Program-made: the position numbers and the translations under genes
The notes under the pieces: model-generated
What the model saw: the letters and a program-made list of their open reading frames with translations, nothing else
Told to the model about the DNA's origin: nothing
Databases searched by the model: none
Assembly (NCBI GenBank): GCA_036009105.1
Contig: DASYMJ010000043.1
Span: 25,658-89,657, forward strand
Reading direction: 5' to 3'
Origin: Thermoanaerobaculia bacterium
GTDB lineage: Bacteria; Acidobacteriota; Thermoanaerobaculia; Gp7-AA8
DNA length: 64,000 bases
Part shown: positions 15,236-54,637 of the stretch, piece after piece
Layout of the letters: every line of letters starts with the position of its first letter
Numbering within the stretch: the stretch's first letter is position 1

Positions 15236-18200
15236 ATGACCGACAACACCGAAAAGCTGGCCGGACTCTCCAGCGCCAAGCGGGCGCTGCTCGAAAAACT
15301 CGTGGCCGAGCGGCGCGCGGCGGCGGGAGAGGTGCGTCCCCGCCCGCGCCCGGAGCGGGTGCCGCTCTCGTTCGGACAGGAGCGCCTGTGGGTGGTGGAG
15401 CAGCTCGCGCCGGGCAGCGCCGCGTACAACGAGCCGGTCGTGTTGTGGCTCTCCGGCGCGCTCGATGTGGGCGCATTGGAGCGCGCGATCAACGAGGTGG
15501 TGCGGCGGCACGAGTCGTTGCGCACGGCGGCCCCTTCGGAAGGGGGGCGTCCGTTCCAGCGCATCGCTCCGTCTTTGACGGTGCCGTTGGTGCTCGCAGA
15601 GGCGACGTCGGATGAAGGAGCGCTGCAGATGGCCAGCAGTGTGATCGCCGCCTCCTTCGATCTCGCCCGCGGGCCGCTCGTGCGCGCGTTGCTGGTGCGG
15701 GTGGAGGCCGAACGGCACCTGCTCGCCATCGCCGTCCACCATCTCCTGATCGACGGCTGGTCGATCAACGTCGTCCTCGGCGAGCTGGCCCGCCTCTACA
15801 ACGGCGAGGCGCTGCCCGAGCCGCCGCTGCAGTACGCCGACTACGCGCTCTGGCAGCGCGAGTGGCTGGACGGCGAGCGCATGGACCGCCAGCTCGCGCA
15901 CTGGCGCGAGCACCTGGAGGGTTGCCCTTCCACCCTCGACCTCCCGGCCGACCGCCCCCGCCCGCCCGTGCAGAGCTTCAAGGGCTCCGTGGTACGGCAC
16001 CTCATCCCGCCCGACCTGTACGAGGCGATGGAGCAGTTCAGCCGGCGGGAGAACGTCACCCCGTTCATGACGCTCTTCGCCGCCTGGACCACGCTGCTGC
16101 ACCGCCTGACCGGGCAGGAGGATCTGCCGCTGGGCGTGGGCCTGGCCAACCGCCCGCGCGCCGAGCTGGAGTCGATCGTCGGCTTCTTCGTGAACACGCT
16201 CGTGCTGCGCACGCGCTTCGACGGCGCGCCGACGTTCCTCGACCTGCTGGCCCGCGTGCGCGAGACGACGCTCGGCGCGCAGGCCAACCAGGATGCGCCG
16301 CTCAGCCGCGTCCTGGAGTCGATGAAGCTCGACCGCGCGGCGAGCCACATGCCCTTCGTGCAGGTGATGCTCTTCTTCCAGAACTACGCGCAGACGGCGC
16401 TGGCCATGAACGGCCTGCGCGTCTCGCGCGTGCCGCTCGACCTCGTTCATCCCGGCTCCGCGCAGACGGACATCGCGCTCTTCGTCAACCAGGATGCGAC
16501 GGGCGAGCTGCTCTTCCAGTACAGCACCGACCTGTTCGACCGGGAGACCATCGAACGGCTCGCCGGGAACTTTGTGGTGCTGCTGCGCGCGGCCATTGCG
16601 GATGCGTCGCAACCGATCGCGCAGCTGCCGCTGCTCACCGAGGAAGAGCGCGTGCAGCTGGCAAAGTGGAATGACACGCGCGTGCCGTATCACCACGGGC
16701 CGCTCATTTCGCTCGTGCAGGCGGCGAGCGACAAACCGGCCGTCACGTTCCGCGGCCGCACCCTGACCTATGCCGAGTTGCGCGCCAGAGCCTCCGCGCT
16801 GGCGGACGAGCTGCGCGCGAGCGGTGTGAAAGCGGGCGACCTGGTGGGCCTCTTCGTGGAGCGCTCGCTGGAGATGGTGATCGGCATCGTGGCCATCCTG
16901 GAGGCGGGCGGCGCGTACGTGCCGCTCGATCCGTCGTACCCCGCCGAGCGGCTCGCCTTCATGCTCGGCGACGCCGGCGCGAAGGTGGTGGTGACCCAGC
17001 GCGAGCTGCGCGAGCAGGTGCCGGTGCAGGGTGTGGAAGTGGTGATCGCGGACGCGGAAAATGTGGGGGCCGGCTTCAGCCGGCCCGGGCGGGCTGAAGC
17101 CCGCCCCCACGTTGACGACCTCGCCTACGTCATCTTCACCTCCGGCTCCACCGGCCGGCCCAAAGGCGTGCAGATCACGCAGCGCTCCGCGGCGAACCTG
17201 CTGCAGTCCGTGGCGCGAGAACCGGGCATGAACGCGGGCGACACCATCTGCGCCGTCTCCACGCTCTCCTTCGACATCGCCCTGCTGGAGCTCGTGCTGC
17301 CGCTCACCGTCGGCGCGCACATCCTCCTGGCCGACCGCGACACCGTGCGCGACGGCAACGCGCTGGGCCGCCTCGTCGCGAACAACGACGTCACCATCAT
17401 GCAGGCCACCCCGGCCACCTGGCGCATGCTCCTCGACATCGGCTGGCGCGGGAAGCCGGGCCTGAAGATCATCTCCACCGGCGAGGCGCTGCCGCGCGAG
17501 CTGGCCGAGCGCCTCCTGCCCTGCGGCCGCGAGCTGTGGAACCTCTACGGCCCCACCGAGACCACGGTCTACTCCGCCCTCGGGCGCATCGAGTCCGGCA
17601 GCGGCCCCATTTCCATCGGCAGGCCGGTGGCGAACACGCAGATCCACATCGTCGACCGCAACCTGCAGCTCCTCCCGCCCGGCGTCCCCGGCGAGCTGCT
17701 CATCGGCGGCGACGGCCTGGCCCGCGGCTACCTCGGGCGTCCCGACCTCACCGCCGAAAAGTTCATCCCCGATCCGTTCTCCGATCAGCCTGAGGCGCGC
17801 CTCTATCGCGCCGGCGACCTCGCCACGTGGCGGCGCGACGGCACCCTGGAAGTCCTCGGCCGGATGGATCACCAGGTCAAGCTGCGCGGCTTCCGCATCG
17901 AGCTCGGCGAGATCGAAGCCGTGCTGGCCCAGCATGCAGATGTCGAGCAGGCGGTCGTGCACTGCCGTGAAGACCGGCCCGGCGACAAGCGCCTCGTGGC
18001 CTACACCACGGGCGGCGCAAGCACGGACGCGCTGCGCGAGCACCTCCGCAAGTCGCTCCCCGACTACATGATCCCCGCCGCCTTCGTGGCGCTGGAGCAG
18101 TTTCCCCTCACGCCGAACGGCAAGGTGAACCGCCATGCATTGCCGGCACCCGAGGCCTTTGCGGGGGCGGCTGTGGAACCTCCGCAGACGCGGGAGGAGC

Positions 18201-18502
18201 GGGAGATGGCCACGCTGTGGTCCGACCTCCTCGGCCGCCGCGACATCGGACGCAACGACAACTTCTTCGACCTCGGCGGCCACTCCCTCCTCGCCATGCA
18301 GATGCTGGCCCGGCTGGAGAAGGCGACCGGCGTCGAAGTTCCCCTGCGCGTCCTGTTCGACGTGCCCACCGTCGCCACGCTGGCCCGGCACGTGGCCGCC
18401 GTGCGCACGGCCAGCCTGGAGACGGAGAACCTCGACGAGCTGCTGGCCCAGCTGGAGGGGCTCTCCGACGACGAGGCGCTCACACGGAGCCAGCTGTCAT
18501 GA
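15236..18502 (+). CDS. Non-ribosomal peptide synthetase, module 1 (C-A-PCP)
   Basis: C domain motifs are [13 protein letters not shown] and [9 protein letters not shown]. A domain motifs are [87 protein letters not shown] and NGKV. The PCP motif is [13 protein letters not shown]. The real ATG is 3 nt after the DUF5916 stop, and the stop overlaps the NRPS2 start (ATGA). Confidence 0.9.
   Translation: [1088 protein letters not shown]
17063..17110. repeat. 48-nt GC-rich double-hairpin element inserted in frame in the NRPS1 A domain (codes [18 protein letters not shown])
   Basis: GTGGGGGCCGGCTTCAGCCGGCCCGGGCGGGCTGAAGCCCGCCCCCAC is a near-perfect palindrome. It is related to the GGGCCGGCT...AGCCGGCCC family. 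It sits just upstream of the A3 motif. Confidence 0.7.
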
Positions 18503-21500
18503 GTGATACCACGCAACGCATCGCCGACCTCTCGCCGCAGAAGCGCGCGCTCCTGCTCCAGCAGCTGGCGAAGGAGAAGGCCGCGCGCGGCCGCATCGTC
18601 CGCCGCGAGCGCCCCGACCCCCTCCCCCCCTCCTTCGCCCAGCAGCGCCTCTGGCTCCTCGACCAGCTCGAGCCGGGCTCGGCGAGCTACAACGTGCCGG
18701 CCGGCGCCTGGATGCGCGGCAAGCTCGATCTCGACATCCTGCGCCGCTGCCTGGAAGAGCTGGTGCGGCGTCACGAGGCGCTGCGCACCACCGTGCCTTC
18801 TTCGGACGGCCGGCCGCACCAGGTCATCGCCGCGCAGGGGCGCGTCGAGCTGCCGCTGTATCACGCCTCCTCGCGCGCCGAAGCGCGGGCCATCGGGCAG
18901 AAGGAGGCGACGCGGCCGTTCGATCTGGCCAAGGGGCCGCTCATGCGCACGCTGGTGGTGCGCCTGTCCGAGGAGGAGCATCTCCTCGTCTTCAACTTCC
19001 ATCACATCGCCGTGGACGGCTGGTCGTTCAGCGTCCTCTATCGCGAGCTCGGCGCGCTTTACGGGGCGTTCCTGCACGGCCGCCCGTCGCCGTTGCCGGA
19101 GCTGCCCATCCAGTACGCCGACTTTGCGCTCTGGCAGCGCGAGTGGCTGCAGGGCGACGTGCTGAAAGGCCAGCTCGACTACTGGACCGAGCGGCTGAGC
19201 GGCAACATCCCGGTGCTGGAGCTGCCCGGCGACCGCCCCCGGCCGGCGAAGCAGTCCTACCGCGGGGACGTGGTGCGCGTGGTCATCCCCGCGGAGCTGG
19301 TGGCCGCCGCCGCGCAGCGCAGCCGCGAGGAAGGCATCACCCTCTTCATGACCTTCCTCGCCGCGTTGAAGACGCTGCTCTTCCGTTACTCCGGACAGAC
19401 CGACGTCGTGGTCGGCTCCGGCATCGCCGGCCGCAACCGGGAAGAGCTGGAGCCGCTGGTCGGCTACTTCGTCAACACGCTCGCCTTGCGCACGGACCTC
19501 TCCGGCAATCCGACGTTCCGCGAGCTGCTGGCCCGCATCCGGGAGACGACCCTCGGCGCGTACGCGCATCAGGACCTGCCGGTGGAGCGGCTGATCGAGG
19601 AGCTCCACGTGGAGCGCTCCCTCGGCCACTCGCCGCTCTTCCAGGTGATGGTCTTCTTCCAGAACATGCCGCATCAGAAGCTGGAGCTGCCCGGCATCAC
19701 GCTCGAGCCGCTGCAGATGGACGAGGTCAACTCCGAGACTGCGCGCACCGATCTGGCGCTGTTCGTCGAGCGGCATGACGACGGCCTGGCCATCCTCTTC
19801 GAGTACAGCACCGACCTGTTCGACGAGGAGACCGTGCGCGCGTTCGGCGAGCACCTGGTGGTGCTGCTGCGCGCCGCGGTGGCGAATCCCGATACGAAGA
19901 TCGGCGAGCTGCCGCTGCTGACCGATGCCGAGCGGCACACGCTGCTCGTTTCCCGTACCGCGAACGCGGCGCCGGTTCCGTCCGCCACGCTCTCCTCGCT
20001 GTTCGAGCAGCAGGTGGCGCGCACGCTGGAGGCGACGGCGCTGATCTTCCCCGAGCGCCGGCTGACGTATCGCGAGCTGGACGAGCGGGCGAACGGCTTC
20101 GCCGCCGAGCTGCAGTCGCGAGGCGCGAAGCCGGGCGAGCTGGTCGGCATCTACACCGACCGCGGCCCGGAGATGGCGATCGCTCTGCTGGGCATCCTCA
20201 AGTCGGGCGCGGCCTACCTGCCGCTCGACCCCACCTATCCGCCCGACCGACTCGCCTTCATGCTCTCGGACACCGGCGCGCGGCTGGTCGCGACGCAGAA
20301 GCACCTGCGCGATGAGGTGCCGTCGAAGGATGTGGAGCTGGTCTTCGTGGACGCATGTCATCCTGAGGGCAGCGAAGGATCCCCCGGCTCAGGCGGCGCA
20401 CGTGCCGGGAGATCCTTCGCCGTCTCCGCGGCTCAGGATGACACCCCGCGCGCCACGCCCGACGACACCGCCTACGTCATCTTCACCTCCGGCTCCACCG
20501 GCAAGCCCAAGGGCGTGCAGATCCCTCATCGCGGCGCGGTGAACTTTCTCCTGGCCATGCTGGAGGCGCCGGGGCTCACGCCGGCGGACACCGTCTGCGC
20601 CATCACCACCCTCTCCTTCGACATCTCCGTCCTGGAGCTCCTCCTCCCGCTGATCATCGGCGCGAAGGCGGCGGTCAGCGACCGGGCCACGGCCACGGAC
20701 GGCAAGCGCCTCGCGCAGTTCATCAGGGACAGCGGCTCCACCGTCGTCCAGGCCACGCCCGCCTCCTGGCGCATGCTCCTCGACGCCGGCTGGGAAGGCG
20801 TGCCCGGGCTGAAGATCCTCTGCGGCGGCGAGCCGCTGCCGCGCGACCTGGCCGACCTCCTCCTGGCCCGGGTGGGGGAGCTGTGGAATGTCTACGGCCC
20901 TACCGAGACCACGGTCTGGTCGGTGCTCGACCGCGTGCTGCCGGACCAGCCGATCACCATCGGCAAGCCGATCCGCAACATGCGCATGTACGTCGCCGAC
21001 GCGAACATGCAGCTCGTCCCGGACGGCGTCCCCGGCGAGCTCCTCATCGGCGGCCTCGGCCTCGGCCACGGCTACGTCAACCGCCCCGAGCTCACCGCCG
21101 ACCGCTTCATCCCCGATCCGTTCAGCGGCATCGAAGGGGCGCGCCTTTACCGCAGCGGCGACATCGCCCGCTGGAGACGAGACGGCCGCCTGGAGATCCT
21201 CGGCCGCTCCGACGGCCAGGTGAAGCTGCGCGGCTTCCGCATCGAGCTGGGCGAGATCGAAGGCGCCCTGCGCGAGCACGCCGCGGTGCGCCAGGTGGTC
21301 GTCGTGCTGCGCGAGGACCGGCCGGGCGACAAGCGCCTCGTGGCCTACGTGGTTCCTCACCAGGCCGCGCCGGCCACGAACGAGCTCCGCGCGCATCTCC
21401 GCGCCATGCTCCCCGACTACATGATCCCCAGCGCGTTCGTCGTGCTGGAGAAGCTGCCCATCTCCCCCAACGGCAAGGTGGACCGCCGCGCGCTGCCTAT

Positions 21501-21834
21501 GCCCGAGCTCTCGGACATCAACGAAGTGGCCGCTCCCGTTGCGCCGCGCACGGCGGAAGAGGAGCAGCTGGCCGAGATCTGGGCCGACGTCCTCGGCCTC
21601 CCCGCGGTCGGCATCGACGACGACTTTTTCGTGCTCGGCGGCCACTCATTGCTGGCCACGCAGCTCATCGCCCGCGTCGGCCGCACGTTCGGCGTCGACC
21701 TGCCGCTGCGCCGGCTCTTCGAAGCGCCGACCGTCGCCTCGTTCGCCGCGGTGCTCGTGACCGAGATGATGTCGACCCTCAACGCGCTGAGCGAGGACGA
21801 GCTGCAGGCGCTCCTGGGAGGGCAGGCTCCTTGA
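18499..21834 (+). CDS. Non-ribosomal peptide synthetase, module 2 (C-A-PCP)
   Basis: C domain motifs are [13 protein letters not shown] and [10 protein letters not shown]. A domain motifs are [51 protein letters not shown] and NGKVDR. The PCP motif is [13 protein letters not shown]. Confidence 0.9.
   Translation: [1111 protein letters not shown]
20357..20442. repeat. MITE-like hairpin element (GTCATCCTGAG...CGAAGGATCC family) inserted in frame in the NRPS2 A domain
   Basis: The element is gtcatcctgagggcagcgaaggatcc-ccc-ggctcaggcggcgcacgtgccgggagatccttcgccgtctccgcggctcaggatgac, with terminal inverted repeats. It encodes [30 protein letters not shown] immediately upstream of the A3 motif. Confidence 0.75.
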
Positions 21835-21845
21835 CCGCCGAGTCG

Positions 21846-24800
21846 ATGGCCGCGCGCCTGGCGCGCCTCACCCCGCAGGAGCGCGCCCGGCTCCTGCGCA
21901 GCGCCGCCGCTCGCGCGACGGCCGTTCCCCGCCGCCCGGCCGGGCAGAACGAGCTGCCGCTCTCGCCCGCGCAGCAGCGGATGTGGTTCCTGGAACAGCT
22001 GCAGCCGGGCGCGTATCACTCCTACGACTTCACGCGCCTCATCGGTCCGGTCGATGTGGCGCGCCTCGACGCCGCCTTCCGGGAGATCGTCCGCCGCCAC
22101 GAGGCGCTGCGCACATCGTTCGTCAGCGTGGACGGCACGCCGCGGCAGCTCGTGCACGATGAGGTGCCGTTCTCCATCGCCTCCGTCACCGTGGAGGATC
22201 CCGAGGGTTTCGCGGACGCGGAGACCCTGCGCCCGTTCGATCTCACCCGGGCGCCTTTGCTGCGCGTGACGCTCGTGAACGGGCAACTGCTGCTGGTCAC
22301 GCTGCATCACATCATCTCGGACGGCTGGTCGCTCGGCGTCCTCGATCAGGAGCTGCGCGCGCTGTACGCCGGTGCGTCGCTGCCGGAGCTGCCGGTGCAG
22401 TTCGGCGACGTCGTGTTGTGGCAGCAGTCGCGGACCGGGGAAGGCGTGGACTGGTGGAAGCAGACGCTGAGCGGCGTTCCCGACGTGCTCGACCTGCCCG
22501 CCGACCACCCGCGGCCGGCCGTGCAATCCTTCCGCGGCGCGCGCGTCACGCACACGGTTTCGCCTTCGCTTCTCGCGGAGCTGAACGAGCTCGCCCAGCG
22601 CGAACACGTCACGCTGTTCATGCTCCTGGTCGCCGCCTTCGACGTGCTGCTCTACCGCCACACCGGCCAGAGCGAGTTCGCCGTCGGGACGCCGGTCGCG
22701 AACCGCACGCCGGAGACCGAGCCGCTGATCGGCCTCTTCATCAACACCATCGCCCTGCGGGCGAACCTGAGCGACGACCCATCGTTCCGCGAGCTGCTCG
22801 GGCGCGTGCGCGAGACGTCCCTCGAAGCGTTCGCCCATCAGGACGTGCCGTTCGACCGTGTGGTCGACGCCCTCGCATTACCGCGCAACGCCAATCGCAC
22901 GCCGCTCTACCAGACCATGATCGTCCTCGGCGCGGGGCAGGGGAGCTACGCGCCGCTGGGCGACATCGAGCGGGTGCCGTATCACCCCCACTCCGCCTCC
23001 GCGCGCTTCGACCTGACGCTGTCGATGGCCATCGACGAGACCGGCCTGGTCTGCCTCTTCGACTACGCGGCCGATCTGTTCGATCCGGCCACCGTCGAGG
23101 CCTTCGCGCGCCGCTACGAGATGCTGCTGCGCGGCGCGGCGGCTGATCCGAATACGGCGGTGTCTCGGCTGCCGCTGATGGATGCCGCCGAGCGCGGTGT
23201 CATCCTGAGCCGCGCGGCCGGCGAAGGATCCGTACCGCTCCTGCGCGATACGACGCTCCACGCACTTTTCCAGGAACAGGCCGCCCGCACGCCCGACACG
23301 CCCGCGGTGAACGACGTGACGTACGGGGAGCTCGACCGCTGGTCGGACGAGATCGCCGCCACCATCGACACCCACCTCGTCCCCTTCCTCGCCGACCGCA
23401 CGCCGGCCGCGATCGCGCAACTGCTCGGCATCCTCAAGGCGGGCGCCGCCTACCTCCCCATCGATCCCGCCACGCCGCGGGAGCGCCTCGACTGGCTCGT
23501 CGCGGACAGCAAGTCGGTGGCGCCGGGCGACAACGCATACGTGATCTACACCTCCGGTTCCACCGGCACGCCGAAAGGCGTCGTGGTCAGCCACCGCTCC
23601 GCGGTCAACCTGACCCTGGCTTTCGCGCAAAGCCATCAGTTTGCAGGTCACCGCCTGCTGATGATCCCGCCGCTGCACTTCGACGCCTCGGTGGGCGACG
23701 TCTTCCCCGCCCTCGCCACCGGCGCGACGCTCATCCTCCATCCGTCGCCCGCCGACCTCGACGCCCGCGCGCTGGCCCGCTTCTGCAACGAGCAGGGCGT
23801 CACCGCCATCGACGCGCCGGCCGCGCTCTGGCGCCGCTGGGCCGCGGAGTGGCAGCCCATCCCCGCGCTGCGCCTGATGATGGTGGGCGGTGAGTCGGTG
23901 CCGGTGGATGAAGTGCGCCGCTTCGCGCGCCTGACGAACAACCAGGTCCGCTTCGTCAACCACTACGGCCCGACCGAAGCGACGGTCTGCGCCACGACCT
24001 ATCACACCGTCGACGCGAGCGAGTGCACCACGACCGAGCTCCCCATCGGCAAGCCGATCGCGAACGTCTCCGCATACGTCCTCGACCAGCACCTCCAGCC
24101 GGTGCCGCGGGGCATCGCGGGCGAGCTGTACATCGGCGGCGCCGGCGTGGCGCGCTATCACGGCCGGGAAGAGTTCCTCCCCAACCCGTTCGGCGAGGGC
24201 CGCCTCTATCGCACCGGCGACCTGGCCCGCCGCCTCGCCTCGGGCGACCTCCTCTTCCTCGGCCGCGCCGACCGGCAGATCAAGCTGCGCGGCTTCCGCA
24301 TCGAGCCGGGGGAGATCGAGGCCGCCATCCTCGCCCACGCCGGCATCCGCGCTGCGATCGTGATCAAGCGCGAGGAGCGGCTCGTCGCCTATGTCGTCGG
24401 CGAGACGGAGCTGCAGTTGCACGACCGCCTGCCGGAGTACATGGTGCCGTCCGCGATCGTGCGCCTCGAGGCGCTCCCGCTGACGAGCAACGGCAAGGTG
24501 GACCTCAACGCGTTGCCCGCTCCCCCCCGCACGACCACCAGTTCCCGCGCGCCCCGCAACGAGACGGAGCGCGAGCTGCTGCGCATCTGGTGCGAGGTGT
24601 TGCAGGCAGACGGCCTCGGCATCGACGACTTCTTCGCGCACGGCGGCGACTCCCTCCGCACCATGCCCCTGGTGTTCAAGGTGCGGGAGCGCTTCGGCGC
24701 CGACCTCCCGCTCAGCTCCGTCTTCCGCGCCCCGACCGTGGCGCGCTTCGCCGCGCTCCTCACGCACGGAGCGCAGGCGGACGATCTGGAATCGAAAATC

Positions 24801-25886
24801 GGCACGTTCCGGGCGCCGGCCATCCGGCGCGCAAACATGCCGCCGAAGAACGTCCTCATCACCGGCGCCACCGGCTTCCTCGGCGCGTTCCTCCTCGACG
24901 AGCTGCAGCGCTCCACGAACGCCACCATCTACGCGCTCGTCCGCGCGGCGAACAAGGCAGACGCGATGCGTCGCATCCGGGAGAACCTCGCTTCTTACGG
25001 TCTGACGCCGGATGAGAAACGCATCGTTCCTCTGCTCGGAGACCTGGCCGAGCCGGGTCTCGGCATCACCGAGAACCTGGACGCCATCGACGTGATCTAT
25101 CACAACGGCGGCGCGGTGAACTTCATCGCGCCGTACGAGCGCCTCGCCGCGGCGAACGTGGACGGCACCCGCACGGTGCTGGCCATGGGCCGGCCGGTGC
25201 ACGTCGTCTCCACCCTGGGCGTCCATTTCACCAAGCCGCGCATCGGCCAAGTGGTGACCGAACAGGATCCCCTGCCGCCCGGCAAAGACATCCTGGGCGG
25301 CTACAACGAGACGAAGTGGGTCGCCGACCGCGTGGCCCAGCTGGCCCGCGAGGCCGGCGTGCCGGTCTCCATCCATCGCCCGGCGCGCATCACCGGCGAC
25401 AGCCGCACTGGCGCGCTCAACCCGGCCGATCTCTTTTACAGCTGGATCAAAGGCTGCGTGCAGCTGGGCAGCTTCCCGGACGACGCGCCGCTGCTGAACA
25501 TGGCGCCGGTCGACCACATCGCCCGCTCCATCGTCGCAATCTCCCTGCACATCGAGCAACCGGCCGACTACCACTACTTCAACAACCGCATGCTGCCGCT
25601 GGAGACGCTCGTCTCCACGCTCCGCCGCCGCGGCTTCGAAGCCTCCATCAAGCCGTACCGGCAGTGGATCGAACAGCTGCGCCACGCGCCGGAGAACCCG
25701 CTGGCGAAGTACCTGGCTCTGATGGAAGAGCCGGACCAGGGCGAGCCGGTGTTCGACTGCACGCGCACCGAAAACGCGCTGGCCCGGCTCGGCATCCTCT
25801 GTCCGGCGGCGGATGAAGCCCTGCTCGGCCTCTACCTCGACCAGCTCCTGCCCGAGCCGGCCATCGCCATGAAAGGACACCCATGA
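21846..25886 (+). CDS. Non-ribosomal peptide synthetase, module 3 with terminal thioester reductase (C-A-PCP-R)
   Basis: C domain motifs are [13 protein letters not shown] and [10 protein letters not shown]. A domain motifs are [81 protein letters not shown] and NGKVDL. The PCP motif is [12 protein letters not shown]. The R domain has [15 protein letters not shown] and GGYNETKW (Y...K). The start could instead be TTG 21831, overlapping the NRPS2 stop. The stop overlaps the MFS gene's ATG. Confidence 0.85.
   Translation: [1346 protein letters not shown]
23199..23250. repeat. Half-copy (left arm plus part of centre) of the MITE-like GTCATCCTGAG element in the NRPS3 C-A linker
   Basis: gtcatcctgagccgcgcggccggcgaaggatccgtaccgctcctgcgcg matches the left half of the full element at 29315-29410. 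It encodes [17 protein letters not shown]. Confidence 0.6.
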
Positions 25887-29306: not shown

Positions 29307-29314
29307 GGTACCGT

Positions 29315-29410
29315 GTCATCCTGAGCCGCGGAGACGGCGAAGGATCCGTACCGATCTTGCGCCGCGCCTGAAGGTTCGGATCCTTCGTCCTCTTCGGGAC
29401 TCAGGATGAC
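29315..29410. repeat. Full-length MITE-like hairpin element (GTCATCCTGAG...CGAAGGATCC family)
   Basis: The left end is gtcatcctgagccgcggagacggcgaaggatccgtaccgatcttgcgccgcgcctgaaggttcggatccttcgtcctcttcgggactcaggatgac, with a variable centre. The element is 96 nt, with 26-30 nt terminal inverted repeats. Confidence 0.8.
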
Positions 29411-29414
29411 ACCC

Positions 29415-32824: not shown

Positions 32825-32836
32825 TGGCTTCTCCGT

Positions 32837-32920
32837 GTCATCCTCAAGTCGCGCAGACGACGAAGGATCTCCCGGCGCTTGCGAGGAGATCCTTCGGCCA
32901 TCTGAGCCGCTCAGGATGAC
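32837..32920. repeat. MITE-like hairpin element (variant GTCATCCTCAAG...) between the RND and MFP genes
   Basis: The element is gtcatcctcaagtcgcgcagacgacgaaggatctcccggcgcttgcgaggagatccttcggccatctgagccgctcaggatgac. The termini are conserved and the centre is divergent. Confidence 0.75.
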
Positions 32921-32921
32921 A

Positions 32922-34043
32922 CTAGCTGTTCTCCGGCTTGGGCGTTGCGCTGTTGGACGGTTGCACGGAGTTGTTGACGATGACGGCCGCGCCGGGGCGG
33001 AGCTTGAACGCGCCGGAGGTGACGACTTCCTCGCCCGGCTTGAGGCCGGTCAGGATGCCGATCTGGTCTCCGCGCGAGCCGCCCAGCTTCACGAACTGCT
33101 GGCGCACGCCGCGGTAGGTCGTCCCCTTCTTCGGGTCCTTCATCTGCTCCACGATGAAGACCGAGTCGCCGAACGGCGCATAGCTGATGGCGGAGGCGGG
33201 GACGACCACGACCGGCGAGGAGCCGCCGCTGGAGAGCTTGGCCTGCACGTACATGCCGGGGCGGAGCTTGCCGGAACGGTTCTCGAAGATGGCCTGCACC
33301 CGGACGTTGCGCGTGGCTTCGTCGATGGCGGACTCGAAGGCGGCGACGCGGCCGTGCTCCGGCGCGCCGAGAGCGTCGGAGACGACTTCGATCTCCGAGC
33401 CGGGGGCGAGCTTGCCGAGGTCGGCCTGGGGGACGGAGAAGTTGACGTAGGCGGGGCGGATGGCCTGCAGGGTGACGATCGGCGCGCCGCCGGCGAGGTA
33501 CTGGCCGAGGTTCACCTGGCGCAGGCCGAGGACGCCGGCGAAGGGGGCGCGGATGGTTTTGCGCTCGATCATCGCCCTGATCTCGCCGACACGCGCGTCG
33601 GCGGACTTGAATTCGGCGCTGGCTTGGTCGAGCGACGACTGGGCGACCACGCCCTGGCCGGCCATCCCCTGGTTGCGCTGCAGGGCGAGGCGGGCCAGCT
33701 CGCGCTGCGCTTCGGCGGCGGCCAGCTGGGCCCGCTCCTGCTTGGTGTCGAGGCGGACCAGGATGTCACCCTTGGAGACGGAGTGGCCGGAGTCGAACGA
33801 GATCTGCTCGATGATGCCGGGCAGGTCGGCGCTGACGGTGACGCCGTTCACCGCGGCGACGGTGCCGATCGCATTCGTCGCGCCGGTCCACGTCTCCTGC
33901 CGGACGATGGTCGTCGTGACGGCTTCCGGGGGCGGCTCCCAGCTCTGGGACATCGCCGTTTTGATCTGGGAGTACTTGAACCAGGCGAGGATGGCGATGA
34001 CGGCGAAGACGACGACGAGCATCAAAAACAAACGCTTTTTCAT
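32922..34043 (-). CDS. RND efflux periplasmic adaptor (membrane fusion protein, AcrA/HlyD family)
   Basis: There is an N-terminal TM helix, a coiled-coil hairpin (ERAQLAAAEAQRELARLALQRNQ) and lipoyl/beta-barrel segments. It lies directly upstream of the RND permease. Confidence 0.9.
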   Translation of the reverse strand: MKKRLFLMLVVVFAVIAILAWFKYSQIKTAMSQSWEPPPEAVTTTIVRQETWTGATNAIGTVAAVNGVTVSADLPGIIEQISFDSGHSVSKGDILVRLDTKQERAQLAAAEAQRELARLALQRNQGMAGQGVVAQSSLDQASAEFKSADARVGEIRAMIERKTIRAPFAGVLGLRQVNLGQYLAGGAPIVTLQAIRPAYVNFSVPQADLGKLAPGSEIEVVSDALGAPEHGRVAAFESAIDEATRNVRVQAIFENRSGKLRPGMYVQAKLSSGGSSPVVVVPASAISYAPFGDSVFIVEQMKDPKKGTTYRGVRQQFVKLGGSRGDQIGILTGLKPGEEVVTSGAFKLRPGAAVIVNNSVQPSNSATPKPENS

Positions 34044-37795: not shown

Positions 37796-39235
37796 GTGTT
37801 TGCATCACTTCTCCTCGCACTCCTGGTGAGCGCGCCACCGGATCTGAAATGGGGCGGTGACTCGGAGGGGGGCGCTCCGTTCGTGGAGGCCGACCCGAAC
37901 GATCCGGCCGTCGTGCGCGGCTTCGACGTGGAGGTGGCGGAGGAGATCGCGAAGGGCCTCGGCCGCAGGCCGCATTTCGTGCAGGTGGCATTCACGGCCA
38001 TCGATCAGTCGGTGGCGCGCGGCGATTTCGACATCGGGATGAGCGGCGTGGAGGACACCCCGCCCCGCCGCGCGGCCATGGCGGCGACCATTCCGTACTT
38101 CGAGTTCCACGAGGTGCTCACCACGCGCGCGGCCGACCGCGGCCGCTTCCGCACCCTGGACGACCTCCGCGGCCACCGCGTCGGCACCCTCGGCGGCACG
38201 ATCGCTTACGACCGCCTGCTCGAGGCGCAGAAGGACGGCGTGGTGCTCGTCTCGTATGACGATGACGTGCACCCCTACGAGGACCTGGCCCAGGGCCGCC
38301 TCGATGCCGTGCTCCTCGACAACATCATCGCCGCCCGCTCCATGCGCCGCGTGCCCGGCCTCTTCATGCAGCCCAAGCCGGTGATGACCGGCCACTACGT
38401 CGCCGTGCTGGCCAGGGAGAACGGCGCCTTGCGCGATCAGGTGGACGCCATCCTGCGCGCGCGGATGCGCGACGGGACGCTGGAGCGGATCTATCGCAAG
38501 TGGCAGATCTGGGATGAGTACCAGCCCCGCTTTTTCGCCTCTGTGCTCGCGCCGCCCAAAAACGTAGGGCCGGCTCTCCAGCCGGCCCCTCGCGTCGACA
38601 AGACGCAGCTCACGCTGGCCTACATCCCCGCCCTCCTCCGCGCGTCGGTCATCACCATCGTCCTCTCCTGCCTCGCCATGGCGCTGGCCATCCTGGTCGG
38701 CGTCCTCATCGCCAGCGGCCGGGTCTACGGCGGCACGCTGCTGCGCGGCGTGCTCGCCACCTACGTGGAAATCGTGCGCGGCACGCCGGTGCTGCTGCAG
38801 CTCTTCGTTTTGTATTACGGCCTCTCCGCCGTCATCCGCCTCCCCGCCTTCATCGCCGCCCTTCTCGGCCTCGGCCTGAACTACGCCGCGTACGAGAGCG
38901 AGATCTATCGCGGCGCGCTGGAGGCGGTCTCGCGCGGCCAGCTCGAGGCGGCGCGCACGCTCGGCCTCACCGAGTCGCAGGTCTTCCGCCTGGTGCGCGG
39001 GCCGCAGGCGTTCCGCCTCGCTCTCGCGCCGATGACGAACGACTTCGTGGCGCTGCTCAAGGACTCCTCGCTCGTGTCGGTGATCACCGTTGTCGAGCTG
39101 ACCAAGCAGACGCAGATCTTCGCCGCGAACATCGGCAGCTGGGTGGTGCCCGGCATCCTCTGCGCGGCGCTCTATCTGTTGATGTCGTTGCCGCTCTCGC
39201 GCGTTGCGCGGCGGCTGGAGGAGCGGTGGCGATGA
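37796..39235 (+). CDS. Amino-acid ABC transporter, fused periplasmic substrate-binding and permease protein (PAAT family)
   Basis: The N-terminal SBP domain has VAFTAIDQSVARGDFDIGMSGV. The C-terminal His/Gln-type permease has the EAA-like loop GLNYAAYESEIYRGALEAVSRGQLEAARTLGL. The junction NVGPALQPAP is encoded by a GGGCCGGCTCTCCAGCCGGCCC hairpin unit. Start is placed at GTG 37796 (signal-like VFASLLLALLVSA); the track start at 37727 lies 20 nt from the divergent M28 start. Confidence 0.75.
   Translation: MFASLLLALLVSAPPDLKWGGDSEGGAPFVEADPNDPAVVRGFDVEVAEEIAKGLGRRPHFVQVAFTAIDQSVARGDFDIGMSGVEDTPPRRAAMAATIPYFEFHEVLTTRAADRGRFRTLDDLRGHRVGTLGGTIAYDRLLEAQKDGVVLVSYDDDVHPYEDLAQGRLDAVLLDNIIAARSMRRVPGLFMQPKPVMTGHYVAVLARENGALRDQVDAILRARMRDGTLERIYRKWQIWDEYQPRFFASVLAPPKNVGPALQPAPRVDKTQLTLAYIPALLRASVITIVLSCLAMALAILVGVLIASGRVYGGTLLRGVLATYVEIVRGTPVLLQLFVLYYGLSAVIRLPAFIAALLGLGLNYAAYESEIYRGALEAVSRGQLEAARTLGLTESQVFRLVRGPQAFRLALAPMTNDFVALLKDSSLVSVITVVELTKQTQIFAANIGSWVVPGILCAALYLLMSLPLSRVARRLEERWR
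38564..38589. repeat. Single GGGCCGGCTCTCCAGCCGGCCC hairpin unit inside the ABC SBP-permease coding sequence
   Basis: The sequence gtagggccggctctccagccggcccc is read in frame as VGPALQPAP at the SBP/permease domain boundary. Confidence 0.65.
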
Positions 39236-39981
39236 GCGTCCTCGCCATCAACGGCCTGCGCCTGAACCGCGGCCCGGTCGAGGTGCTGCGCGGGGTGAAC
39301 CTGAGCGTCGAGCGGGGCGAGCTGGTCGCGCTGATGGGCCTCTCCGGCGGCGGCAAGACGACCATCCTGCGCACCATCGCCGCGCTGGAGCCGTTCGACG
39401 CCGGCACGGTGGAGGTCGACGGCGTGACGCTCCGCCCCGGGCCGCTGCCCGCGCGCGGCGTCCTGCGCGAGCTTCGCCGCCGCGTCGGCATGGTCTTCCA
39501 GCTGCACTACCTGTTCGAGCACCTCACCGCGCTGCAGAACGTGACCCTCGCGCCGCTGCACGTCGCTCGCGCCGCGCACGCCGAGGCCGGCCGCCGCGCG
39601 CTCACCCTCCTCGAATCCCTCGGCGTGGCCCATCGCCGGGATGCCTATCCCCGCGAGCTCTCCGGCGGCGAAGCGCAGCGCGTGGCCATCGCCCGGGCCA
39701 TGGCCATGGACCCGCCGCTGCTCCTGATGGACGAGCCGACCGCCTCGCTCGATCCGGCGCGGCGCGGAGAGCTGGGCCGTACGCTCCAGCAGCTCACCTC
39801 CGGCGACCGCACCCTCATCGTCACCACCCACGACGACGACTTTGCCCGCGACTTCGCCACCCGGGTGATCATCCTCGCCGAGGGCGAGGTGGTGGAGGAA
39901 GGGCTGCCCAACGAGGTGCTGGTCAACCCGCAGCATCCGGCCACGCGCCGCCTGCTCCAACACGAACAAGTGTCATCCTGA
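39232..39981 (+). CDS. Amino-acid ABC transporter ATP-binding protein (GlnQ/HisP-like)
   Basis: Walker A is GLSGGGKTT, the signature is LSGGEAQRVAIARA, and Walker B is LLLMDEPTASLD. The ATG overlaps the permease stop. The stop codon lies inside the next MITE-like element. Confidence 0.9.
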   Translation: MSVLAINGLRLNRGPVEVLRGVNLSVERGELVALMGLSGGGKTTILRTIAALEPFDAGTVEVDGVTLRPGPLPARGVLRELRRRVGMVFQLHYLFEHLTALQNVTLAPLHVARAAHAEAGRRALTLLESLGVAHRRDAYPRELSGGEAQRVAIARAMAMDPPLLLMDEPTASLDPARRGELGRTLQQLTSGDRTLIVTTHDDDFARDFATRVIILAEGEVVEEGLPNEVLVNPQHPATRRLLQHEQVSS

Positions 39982-40068
39982 GGAGCGCAGACGCCGAAGG
40001 ATCCGTAGCGATTTCGCGCCGCGCCTGAAGGTGCGGATCCTTCGCCTCTGCGGGGCTCAGGATGGCAC
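39972..40068. repeat. Full-length MITE-like hairpin element (GTCATCCTGAG...CGAAGGATCC family)
   Basis: The element is gtcatcctgaggagcgcagacgccgaaggatccgtagcgatttcgcgccgcgcctgaaggtgcggatccttcgcctctgcggggctcaggatggcac. The centre is nearly identical to the copy at 29315-29410. Confidence 0.8.
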
Positions 40069-40081
40069 TACACTGCGCGGA

Positions 40082-42287: not shown

Positions 42288-43052
42288 CTATCGCTTCACG
42301 AAGAGCGCGACGGTCATCACCAGGCCGATCGTCACCACCGCCCAGCGCACGAACCCGCGGCCGAGCCTTCGCGCGATCCGGGCGCCGAGGTAGCCGCCCA
42401 GGATTGCGGCGACGGCCATGATCGCGGCGTCGCGCCAGAGCACCGCGCCGGAGATGGCGAAGCAGATCGCGGCCACGCCGTTGACGCACGTGGCCAGCAG
42501 GTTCTTCAGGCCGTTCATCTGGTGCATGTCGGTCAGGCCAATGAGGCCGAGGGCGGCCAGCATGAGGATGCCCTGGCCGGCGCCGAAGTAGCCGCCGTAG
42601 ATCGCCACGAGCAGCTGGAAGGTGAAGGCGAAGATCACCCAGCCGCGCGCCGGGCGTTCGTTCGCGGAGGCGAAGGAGCGGAACCAGCGCGAGATCACCT
42701 CCTGCGCGGCGAGGAGCAGCGTGGCGGCGAGGATCAGCCACGGCACGATGCGGGTGAAGAGCTTCTCCGGCGTGTGCAGCAGGAGCAGCGCGCCGATGAT
42801 GCCGCCGATCACGGCGGGGATGGTCAGGAGCAGCAGCCAGCGGGGCAGGCCGGCCAGCTCGCGGCGGAAGCCGATCGCGCCGGCCAGCGAGCCGGGCCAG
42901 AGCGCGACGGAGTTCGTCGCGTTCGCCGCGATCGGGTTGCGGCCGATCCAGAGCAGGGCCGGGAAGGAGAGCAGCGTCCCGCCGCCGGCGATGGAGTTGA
43001 TGATGCCCGCCACGAGGGTGGCGATGGAGATGATGGCGATTTCCCGTGTCAT
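42288..43052 (-). CDS. TauE/SafE family sulfite/anion exporter (DUF81)
   Basis: 254 aa with 7-8 TM helices and duplicated GGG-rich motifs (IAGGGTLLSFPALL; GGYFGAGQGILMLAAL). The ATG lies inside the terminal CTCAGGATGAC of the adjacent repeat element. Confidence 0.85.
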   Translation of the reverse strand: MTREIAIISIATLVAGIINSIAGGGTLLSFPALLWIGRNPIAANATNSVALWPGSLAGAIGFRRELAGLPRWLLLLTIPAVIGGIIGALLLLHTPEKLFTRIVPWLILAATLLLAAQEVISRWFRSFASANERPARGWVIFAFTFQLLVAIYGGYFGAGQGILMLAALGLIGLTDMHQMNGLKNLLATCVNGVAAICFAISGAVLWRDAAIMAVAAILGGYLGARIARRLGRGFVRWAVVTIGLVMTVALFVKR

Positions 43053-43144
43053 CCTGAGTCCCGCGGAGGACGAACGATCCGTACCTTCAGGCGCCGCGCG
43101 GGATCGGTACGGATCCTTCGCCGTCCGCGCGGCTCAGGACGACA
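43048..43144. repeat. Full-length MITE-like hairpin element, centre in opposite orientation to the copies at 29315 and 39972
   Basis: The element is gtcatcctgagtcccgcggaggacgaacgatccgtaccttcaggcgccgcgcgggatcggtacggatccttcgccgtccgcgcggctcaggacgac. Its centre is approximately the reverse complement of the 29315-copy centre. Confidence 0.8.
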
Positions 43145-43146
43145 GG

Positions 43147-54569: not shown

Positions 54570-54634
54570 GTGGGGCCGGCTCTCAGCCGGCCCAGCTATC
54601 CGTTGACGACGGGCCGGCTGAGAGCCGGCCCCAC
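54570..54634. repeat. Inverted pair of GGGCCGGCTCTCAGCCGGCCC hairpin units between convergent genes
   Basis: The sequence is GTGGGGCCGGCTCTCAGCCGGCCC-agctatccgttgacgac-GGGCCGGCTGAGAGCCGGCCCCAC. It has the same architecture as 1866-1931. Confidence 0.75.
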
Positions 54635-54637
54635 ATT

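Follow-up and report, generated by a model that had tools for sequence, protein, structure and literature searches.

The 64,000-nt stretch of contig DASYMJ010000043.1 analysed here (the window), from a soil bacterium of the Thermoanaerobaculia (Acidobacteriota), encodes three consecutive single-module nonribosomal peptide synthetases (NRPSs). The third, NRPS3, contains within its coding sequence a truncated copy of a palindromic repeat of about 100 nt that is also present in the window as whole copies (Table 1). NRPS3 is a protein of 1346 aa, 100% identical to a protein from a Thermoanaerobaculia metagenome-assembled genome (P0001). The half-copy spans window positions 23197–23247 and comprises the left terminus of the repeat, its left arm and the start of its centre (about 10 nt), with no right arm after it. 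The original prediction had described a half-copy of a MITE (miniature inverted-repeat transposable element) within the linker between the condensation (C) and adenylation (A) domains of NRPS3; the sequence it quoted is found at 23199–23247, and the element-terminal GT at 23197–23198 belongs to the match too. In the NRPS3 frame, the half-copy is translated as VILSRAAGEGSVPLLRD (residues 452–468, V452–D468), and its terminus and arm alone (23197–23238) as (G)VILSRAAGEGSVP (residues 451–464).

Membership in the same repeat family as the whole copies was borne out by alignment. The half-copy is identical to the reverse complement of 43095–43144 at 46 of 50 positions (92%) and shares 69% identity over 75 nt with 29313–29387. 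When the whole copies were aligned locally to the 4-kb NRPS3 gene, the best placement was always 23197–23247, with scores of 37.5–40, while 200 dinucleotide-preserving shuffles scored 11 ± 1 with a maximum of 15.5, which gives the half-copy a z of about 25. An alignment with shuffled controls of this kind was the test that the original prediction had itself proposed, and the similarity is significant. With an nhmmer profile for which the three full-length long-variant copies were the sole input and the half-copy was left out, the same interval was recovered (profile positions 1–51 of 100, E = 8.3e-10, 35 bits). The left terminus GTGTCATCCTGAG and the left arm through GAAGGATCCGTACC are present (profile positions 1–42), similarity ends at profile position 51, and the centre and right arm (…GGATCCTTCG…CTCAGGATGACAC) are missing: this is a truncated copy and not a whole member of the ~100-nt repeat. 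With one arm lost, the long hairpin is abolished, as the half-copy region has no excess RNA structure relative to shuffles (z = −0.07, compared with −5.2 to −9.4 for whole copies). Where the element-derived part stops on its 3′ side is uncertain, the end falling no earlier than 23238 and no later than 23247. The stretch 23239–23247 matches the centre of the copy at 43046 in 8 of 10 positions, and it is also collinear with CTG CCC AAT and ATC CCC GAC (L/I-P-N/D) in the orthologous loci L001 and L003, the latter without an element copy; codons 23239–23250 line up with apparently native codons of orthologues.

The placement in the C-A linker held up as well. The Pfam Condensation match ends at residue 451 and the A domain starts (LHALFQEQAARTPD) at residue 471. 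In LgrA module 2, it is the C-A linker to which the half-copy stretch aligns. An AlphaFold2 (AF2) model built from 16 orthologues (mean predicted local distance difference test score, pLDDT, of 71) has a helix at 447–457, a loop at 458–470 and the first A-domain helix at 471–481, with pLDDT values of 89, 83, 69 and 91 for the 10-residue blocks that start at residues 441, 451, 461 and 471. In this model, residues 452–457 would form the end of a confident helix and residues 458–470 a loop, as in canonical C-A linkers. The frame has been preserved, as had been stated: the open reading frame (ORF) is intact over its 1346 aa and all core motifs are conserved across the 16 orthologues, while the alignment columns at the half-copy site are variable. 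Translated within an intact, conserved gene and located in a permissive linker, the half-copy has the attributes of an in-frame intragenic palindromic element.

Comparison with orthologues indicated that the repeat arm is not an addition to the linker. All loci compared share the gene order GT87-DUF5916-NRPS1-NRPS2-NRPS3-MFS-DUF6875-FAD. Measured from VSR to LHxLF, the linker is 37 aa long in the window with the half-copy, and the native linkers of the outgroup orthologues P0005 (locus L124) and P0013 (L125) measure 37 and 35 aa; in P0002 (L003) it is non-native, with 28 aa, nine residues shorter than in the window. The spacing of motifs relative to paralogues likewise leaves NRPS3 without extra length at this site. 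Because linker length is unchanged relative to the outgroups, the repeat replaces native residues, and the claim of inserted extra sequence does not stand: the arm takes the place of ~13–17 native residues, with no net insertion. The native linker core of the outgroups, ER-x-x-(L/I/V)L-x-(A/Q)(S/A)-x-G-(P/E)…(W/R)P…TLH, is conserved from P0005 to P0016 and is gone in the window NRPS3.

The same truncated copy is present in the orthologue P0004 (L001 11610–11651, profile positions 1–42, E = 2e-9). The left junction lies at the exact element terminus in both genes (GAG CGC G/GT GTC ATC C in the window and GAA CGC A/GT GTC ATC C in L001, the slash marking the junction), and the right junction, GGATCCGTACC-K-YYC CTG CSC RAT ACG ACN CTC CAC, is common to both. 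The comparison with homologous NRPSs, which had been suggested as a check, thus gave a shared copy on the one hand and no added length relative to outgroups on the other. In P0004, a further 219 nt of repeats stand between the first GTCATCCTGAG and the shared half-copy. This nest (L001 11390–11609, L002 5049–5268, L128 6787–7008) is in frame and adds 73 residues. It contains a variant palindrome that shares the termini of the repeat, a double hairpin of the GGCTTCAGCC type, and a left-arm fragment of 26 nt with a small hairpin after it. P0004 was found in three independent assemblies, from NCBI (L001), ENA (L002) and JGI (L128), in which the nest is identical, and the L001-type sequence is therefore not an assembly artefact. 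In P0002, by comparison, no copy of the repeat family was detected in 20 kb, and any element remnant in the short L003 linker is not significant (best p ~0.013, uncorrected over 14 tests); the P0003 linker resembles that of P0002 in being short and lacking the native core. In this best but weak match, the P0002 linker (L003 11326–11395, …RAVEPIDVVAIPD…) resembles the centre of the P0004 variant palindrome (L001 11434–11473, …QAFTRIHVVASLG…) in frame at 28 of 40 nt; if this resemblance is real, a complex P0004-like state would be ancestral and the window state would have arisen by deletion between direct GTCATCCTGAG repeats. A protein search with a 255-aa fragment around the linker returned only distant fragments (≤39% identity) and no close fragmentary orthologues, and a metagenome scan with P0003 yielded distant relatives and, beyond these, nothing but a further copy of the P0004 allele (L128).

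The age of the event can be judged from these orthologues. With the window denoted Q, the topology ((Q,L003),L001),L124 was obtained in each of five cluster genes, with 300 of 300 bootstraps over 4557 concatenated codons, and a protein neighbour-joining tree agrees in placing Q nearer L003 than L001. Between Q and L001, NRPS3 shows a synonymous divergence (dS) of 0.61, a ratio of nonsynonymous to synonymous divergence (dN/dS) of 0.23 and about 80% nucleotide identity. NRPS3 has been under purifying selection while carrying the half-copy, the dN/dS value indicating that the gene was maintained. Given the truncated copy shared with L001 and the five-gene phylogeny, the event is therefore placed before the split of these lineages (dS ~0.6). 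In the simplest history, the ancestor shared by Q, P0002, P0003 and P0004 would already have had the truncated copy, and the P0002/P0003 line would later have lost it with a further deletion; the missing native core in these two proteins fits an ancestral linker that had been disrupted beforehand. The NRPS2 whole copy is distributed likewise, being present in Q and at the orthologous site of L001 (8486–8578), with a different repeat family there in L003. The half-copy is identical between Q and L001 at 35 of 39 positions, which is no excess of nucleotide or synonymous conservation: 17–20% of 13-codon windows are equally conserved. Conservation within the normal range of the gene gives no sign of DNA-level constraint or recent transfer. 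Of the proposed old and partly decayed insertion, the age was supported by identical junctions in an orthologue at about 80% nucleotide identity, whereas decay is the wrong description for a clean truncation that is still 92% identical to a present copy.

We infer that the half-copy is probably a truncated, immobile copy of a dispersed ~100-nt hairpin repeat that entered the NRPS3 linker in an ancestor, by insertion and subsequent deletion. A whole element would have inserted just after the conserved AER codons, and a deletion of ~100 nt would then have taken the element centre, the right arm and the adjoining ~40–45 nt of native linker, restoring the original linker length. The left edge of the match coincides exactly with the element terminus, a point in favour of a true insertion over a patch whose ends would be arbitrary. 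When the three long-variant copies of the window are read in the half-copy's orientation and frame, each gives ...VPI(L/P)R(R/G)A followed by a TGA stop that lies two codons past the end of similarity to the half-copy, so a whole copy like these would have truncated NRPS3. The deletion would also have removed this in-frame TGA, if the inserted copy resembled those of this genome today. Short identities between the element centre and the native 3′ linker (CCG CGC in L125) could have served as deletion end-points. Without one arm, the remnant forms no long hairpin and could no longer be excised or mobilised; it would since have evolved as ordinary coding sequence, for the last part of the linker helix and the loop after it. 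Loss of the hairpin plausibly explains the persistence of the half-copy while whole copies turn over.

Several points weigh against this account. No genome with a whole copy at the NRPS3 linker site was found, and the order of insertion and deletion is inferred, not observed. The long-variant copy in the L001 NRPS2 has CGA in place of TGA and would be read through, and the stop argument rests on present-day copies. Arrival at the exact native length after a random deletion needs selection or luck, and linker length is not strictly constrained, as the 73 extra residues of P0004 and the nine missing from P0002 and P0003 are tolerated. Presence in the ancestor requires a loss in the P0002 (and P0003) lineage, where there is no significant element remnant. 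Finally, the native outgroup linker is partly similar to the arm in register (an L in the same place, and GGC GAA, encoding G-E, in L125), which leaves room for replacement of a patch in one step.

Such a one-step replacement, in which template switching or microhomology-mediated repair copied part of a repeat from elsewhere in the genome over a short patch of native linker and no whole element was ever inserted, seems unlikely to us, though it survives best among the alternatives. It would account directly for a linker of outgroup length, and the outgroup sequence offers in-register microhomologies with both arm and centre (CTG, GGC GAA, CCG CGC). Similarity nevertheless starts exactly at the element-terminal GTGTCATCC in both Q and L001, as expected for insertion; the native-to-arm similarity, only about 58% over 24 nt, is too low for homologous conversion; and the accumulation at this site in P0004 of more elements, both whole and partial, shows that real insertions do happen there. 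The exact start of the match at the element terminus is also why gene conversion from the repeat was not retained as the main explanation.

A slightly less likely alternative still is that the copy was not ancestral: the Q and P0004 lineages would each have gained it at this site independently, or it would have passed between them as an allele by recombination. The placement of Q closer to the copy-free L003 than to L001 would favour this, as would the 35 of 39 identical positions in a gene at 80% identity overall and the landing of different elements at one site in the A2–A3 loops. Both junctions and the truncation point, however, are identical in the two lineages, and the identity of the half-copy is unexceptional among the windows of the gene. 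Moreover, the native linker core is missing from L003 and P0003, which a disrupted ancestor would predict, and the NRPS2 copy repeats the Q and L001 pattern.

It is improbable that the arm was kept for a role at the DNA level, as a single hairpin unit of the Ssn type (discussed below) recognised by a GIY-YIG single-strand nuclease and affecting recombination or uptake of the NRPS cluster. A single arm is indeed complete in itself as a unit (GTC, stem ATCCT, inner stem GCCG, loop, CGGC, AGGAT and C) with the architecture of the Neisseria NTS (PMC11893778), and in other phyla small GIY-YIG genes are flanked by arms whose stems vary in a compensatory manner. Against such a role, the arm shows no excess synonymous conservation between Q and L001, its hairpin is no more stable than shuffles, the 64-kb window has no GIY-YIG gene and the published SRM motif is not matched. 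The two nonsynonymous differences between Q and L001 (GCG GCC vs GAA GAC) are located in the loop predicted for the arm hairpin and do not discriminate between readings. Chance resemblance or assembly artefact, which might be suspected in a metagenome-assembled contig and in high-GC coding DNA with its many weak matches, is for practical purposes refuted by the shuffles (z about 25), the profile E-value (8e-10) and the collinear, in-frame orthologous sequence on both sides, together with the junctions shared by three independent assemblies of a relative.

Table 1. Positions of the synthetase genes, the half-copy and the whole copies of the repeat in the window, and of regions with arms and GIY-YIG genes at other loci.
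Feature	Coordinates	Strand	Remarks
NRPS1	15236–18502		Domains C-A-T
NRPS2	18499–21834		Domains C-A-T
NRPS3	21846–25886	+	C-A-T-R with terminal thioester reductase; limits from ORF and start; Pfam Condensation, AMP-binding, PP-binding, NAD_binding_4
NRPS3 C-A interdomain linker (VSRLPLMDAAER-GVILSRAAGEGSVPLLRD-TTLHALF)	23160–23270	+	From Pfam limits, LgrA alignment and AF2 model
Half-copy, left terminus (GTGTCATCCTGAG) and complete left arm (through GAAGGATCCGTACCG)	23197–23238	+	nhmmer profile positions 1–42
Half-copy, ambiguous 9 nt (CTCCTGCGC)	23239–23247	+	Repeat centre or native linker codons; tenth base of the match is G at 23248
Whole short-centre copy, in frame in NRPS2	20356–20446		Between A-domain motifs A2 and A3; RNA fold z = −5.2
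Full-length long-variant copy, intergenic	29313–29412		RNA fold z = −9.4
Whole, more diverged copy of the same family, intergenic	32836–32924		
Full-length long-variant copy	39970–40069		Supplies the TGA stop (39979–39981) of the upstream ORF
Full-length long-variant copy	43046–43145		Reverse complement is the closest relative of the half-copy; RNA fold z = −7.2
Arm/GIY-YIG region, L097	3700–4500		
Arm/GIY-YIG region, L011	3300–3800		
Arm/GIY-YIG region, L081	4000–4600		
Arm/GIY-YIG region, L079	1–400		
Arm/GIY-YIG regions, L156–L165			

Repeat-derived coding sequence is not confined to NRPS3. The original prediction had attributed such sequence to all three synthetase genes, which is correct as far as it goes: the NRPS2 insert is a member of the same family, read in the context CHPEGSEGS...SFAVSAAQDD (…VDACHPEGSEGS…SFAVSAAQDDTPR…AYVIFTSGSTG), and NRPS1 also carries a repeat, but one of a different family. 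This is an in-frame double hairpin (GGGCCGGCTTCAGCCGGCCC GGGCGGGCTGAAGCCCGCCC, translated VGAGFSRPGRAEARP) in the A2–A3 loop at 17050–17106, belonging to the GGCTTCAGCC double-hairpin family. Among relatives, the NRPS1 loop has a repeat of the same family in L001 (5068–5280) and another repeat (PSPRLWGEGAAERRVRG) in L003 (5179–5382). At the A2–A3 site of NRPS2, the copies in Q and L001 have identical arms and a different centre, and L003 (8463–8657) has the GGCTTCAGCC double hairpin exactly there. The C-A linker and the A2–A3 loops are recurrent sites of repeat gain and loss among close relatives. Assorted repeat-like peptides were also seen in the A2–A3 loops of distant NRPS3 orthologues (P0005 and P0007–P0012).

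Two further observations concern repeats elsewhere in the window. The ORF at 39226–39981, whose C-terminus (…RRLLQHEQVSS and stop) resembles an ABC ATPase, ends in the repeat terminus GTG TCA TCC TGA, so that its last three residues and stop are repeat-derived. A 54-nt inverted pair at 1863–1916 and 54584–54637 is 93% complementary and consists of GGGCCGGCTCTCAGCCGGCCC hairpins, in a style akin to the NRPS1 insert; the GGGCCGGCTCTCAGCCGGCCC repeats are a second abundant hairpin-repeat family in this genome.

Turning to the nature of the family, the MITE label remains unproven. Small size, terminal inverted repeats, many copies and no coding capacity are all traits of MITEs, but the conserved part here is a structured arm rather than a transposase-binding end. 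No target-site duplication was found at the flanks of the five whole window copies or at copies in other phyla, the palindrome extending outwards in several, and no transposase recurred when ORFs within 2 kb of the motif were clustered across at least 120 loci. These loci (L004–L123) came from a scan of one genome per species with the pattern GTCATCCTGAG-N(4–13)-CGAAGGATC, and they belong to Acidobacteriota, Chloroflexota, Bacteroidota, Bacillota, Planctomycetota, Omnitrophota, Patescibacteria, Proteobacteria and others; many have two arms inverted around a variable centre of 10–100 nt. In L034, two arms separated by 600 nt had suggested an autonomous element, a candidate that was discarded because they are two separate small copies flanking an unrelated small ORF. 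Rfam returned no family for the whole window at gathering thresholds; a permissive search with a whole copy gave nothing beyond generic models of miRNA hairpins, which scored far below threshold. Literature searches yielded only unrelated primers for the terminal sequence and nothing relevant for MITEs in NRPS genes.

The only ORF family linked to the element in the scanned loci encodes a small GIY-YIG nuclease (Pfam PF01541; nearest PDB entry 1zg2, UPF0213). In four loci from different phyla, its ~95-aa gene lies between a left and a right arm or beside a whole copy; more than 7,900 such proteins were found, and five sampled loci again had arms on both sides. Loci with arms flanking the gene include Omnitrophica L097, Cyclobacteriaceae L011, Hymenobacter L081, L158, L159, L160 and Thermodesulfovibrio L156. 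The arm stems covary (ATCCT/AGGAT, ATGCT/AGCAT, ATTCT/AGAAT, ACTGC/GCAGT), with a predicted hairpin (((((..((((......))))..))))) whose folding energy is not better than that of shuffles. A tblastn search of the 64-kb window detected no GIY-YIG gene, and no Thermoanaerobaculia member was among the 120 best of the more than 7,900 matches.

These features recall the Ssn family, site-specific GIY-YIG single-strand nucleases that recognise NTS/SRM hairpin repeats (PMC11893778). SRMs have a hairpin of 20–50 nt after a conserved GTCAT, and they flank a gene for a single-domain GIY-YIG protein of ~95 aa (cd10448); the Neisseria NTS reads CGTC-ATTCCCGCG-MAV-CGCGGGAAT-CYRG (PMC11893778). The arms of our repeat likewise begin with (N)GTCAT, and their stem starts at that AT, as in the NTS (PMC11893778), here as TGTC-ATCCT-GAGCCG...CGGCGA-AGGAT-C. 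The copies are dispersed in many phyla, and arms of the same architecture with compensatory stems flank ~95-aa GIY-YIG genes elsewhere. They differ in that the repeat here consists of inverted arm pairs around a variable centre, in units of 60–150 nt, and in that the window has no Ssn gene. The published SRM search pattern, HGTCWYN(0-2)YYVSBRHN(0-5)WNVSBRGN(0-2)RNCYNB (PMC11893778), matches an NTS instance, none of the arms and nothing in the window. The resemblance to Ssn/NTS-type hairpin repeats is a well-founded lead rather than proven membership, weakened by the unmatched pattern, by an arm hairpin no more stable than shuffles and by the lack of a GIY-YIG gene in the window. More tentatively, and at somewhat less than even chances, the repeat may be no classical MITE but a paired form of Ssn-type motifs spread across many phyla, with these and other hairpin repeats in Thermoanaerobaculia recurrently colonising the C-A linker and A2–A3 loop of NRPSs, where close relatives would exchange or remove them, and the half-copy in NRPS3 a natural swap of 13–17 linker residues at constant length.

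Two other systems offer partial parallels. Repetitive extragenic palindromic (REP) sequences and bacterial interspersed mosaic elements (BIMEs), with their REP-associated tyrosine transposases (RAYTs), share inverted pairing of hairpin units and a small gene for a single-strand-specific enzyme flanked by repeats. In contrast, the gene linked to the present repeat in other taxa encodes a GIY-YIG nuclease and not a Y1 (HUH) transposase, and there is no GTAG-type 5′ tetranucleotide. Small intragenic repeats are represented by the Rickettsia palindromic elements (RPEs), ERIC and Coxiella QMITE1 (PMC10969869). In behaviour, these are the nearest counterparts of the present case. Like the RPEs, the family is a dispersed palindromic repeat (about 100–150 nt) found in frame within a gene, where it adds or replaces a peptide in a tolerant region and leaves the host gene functional (PMC10969869). 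Unlike them, it belongs to another sequence family and host phylum, its host is a modular NRPS whose insertion sites (C-A linker and A2–A3 loop) turn over between orthologues, and in NRPS3 a single arm survives, substituting native residues at constant length.

Small palindromic repeats absorbed in frame into proteins are familiar from the Rickettsia RPEs onwards, and the event itself is not surprising. What NRPS3 provides is a dated case, backed by orthologues, in which part of an NRPS interdomain linker has given way to a repeat arm with no gain in length. If the arm was indeed swapped into the linker, it has been kept through a dS of ~0.6, while a sister lineage carries the same arm and 73 extra repeat-encoded residues in a still-intact gene. 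The differing repeat families at one A2–A3 site across relatives mark recurrent landing or permissive sites. Of greater interest are two threads. The alternative outcomes in relatives, 73 residues longer or nine shorter, are natural variants that supply data on the tolerance of C-A linkers and are relevant to NRPS engineering. The same termini in many phyla and the bracketed GIY-YIG genes, in turn, link the repeat to the Ssn/NTS system and suggest that the repeats of that system are broader than the published motif.

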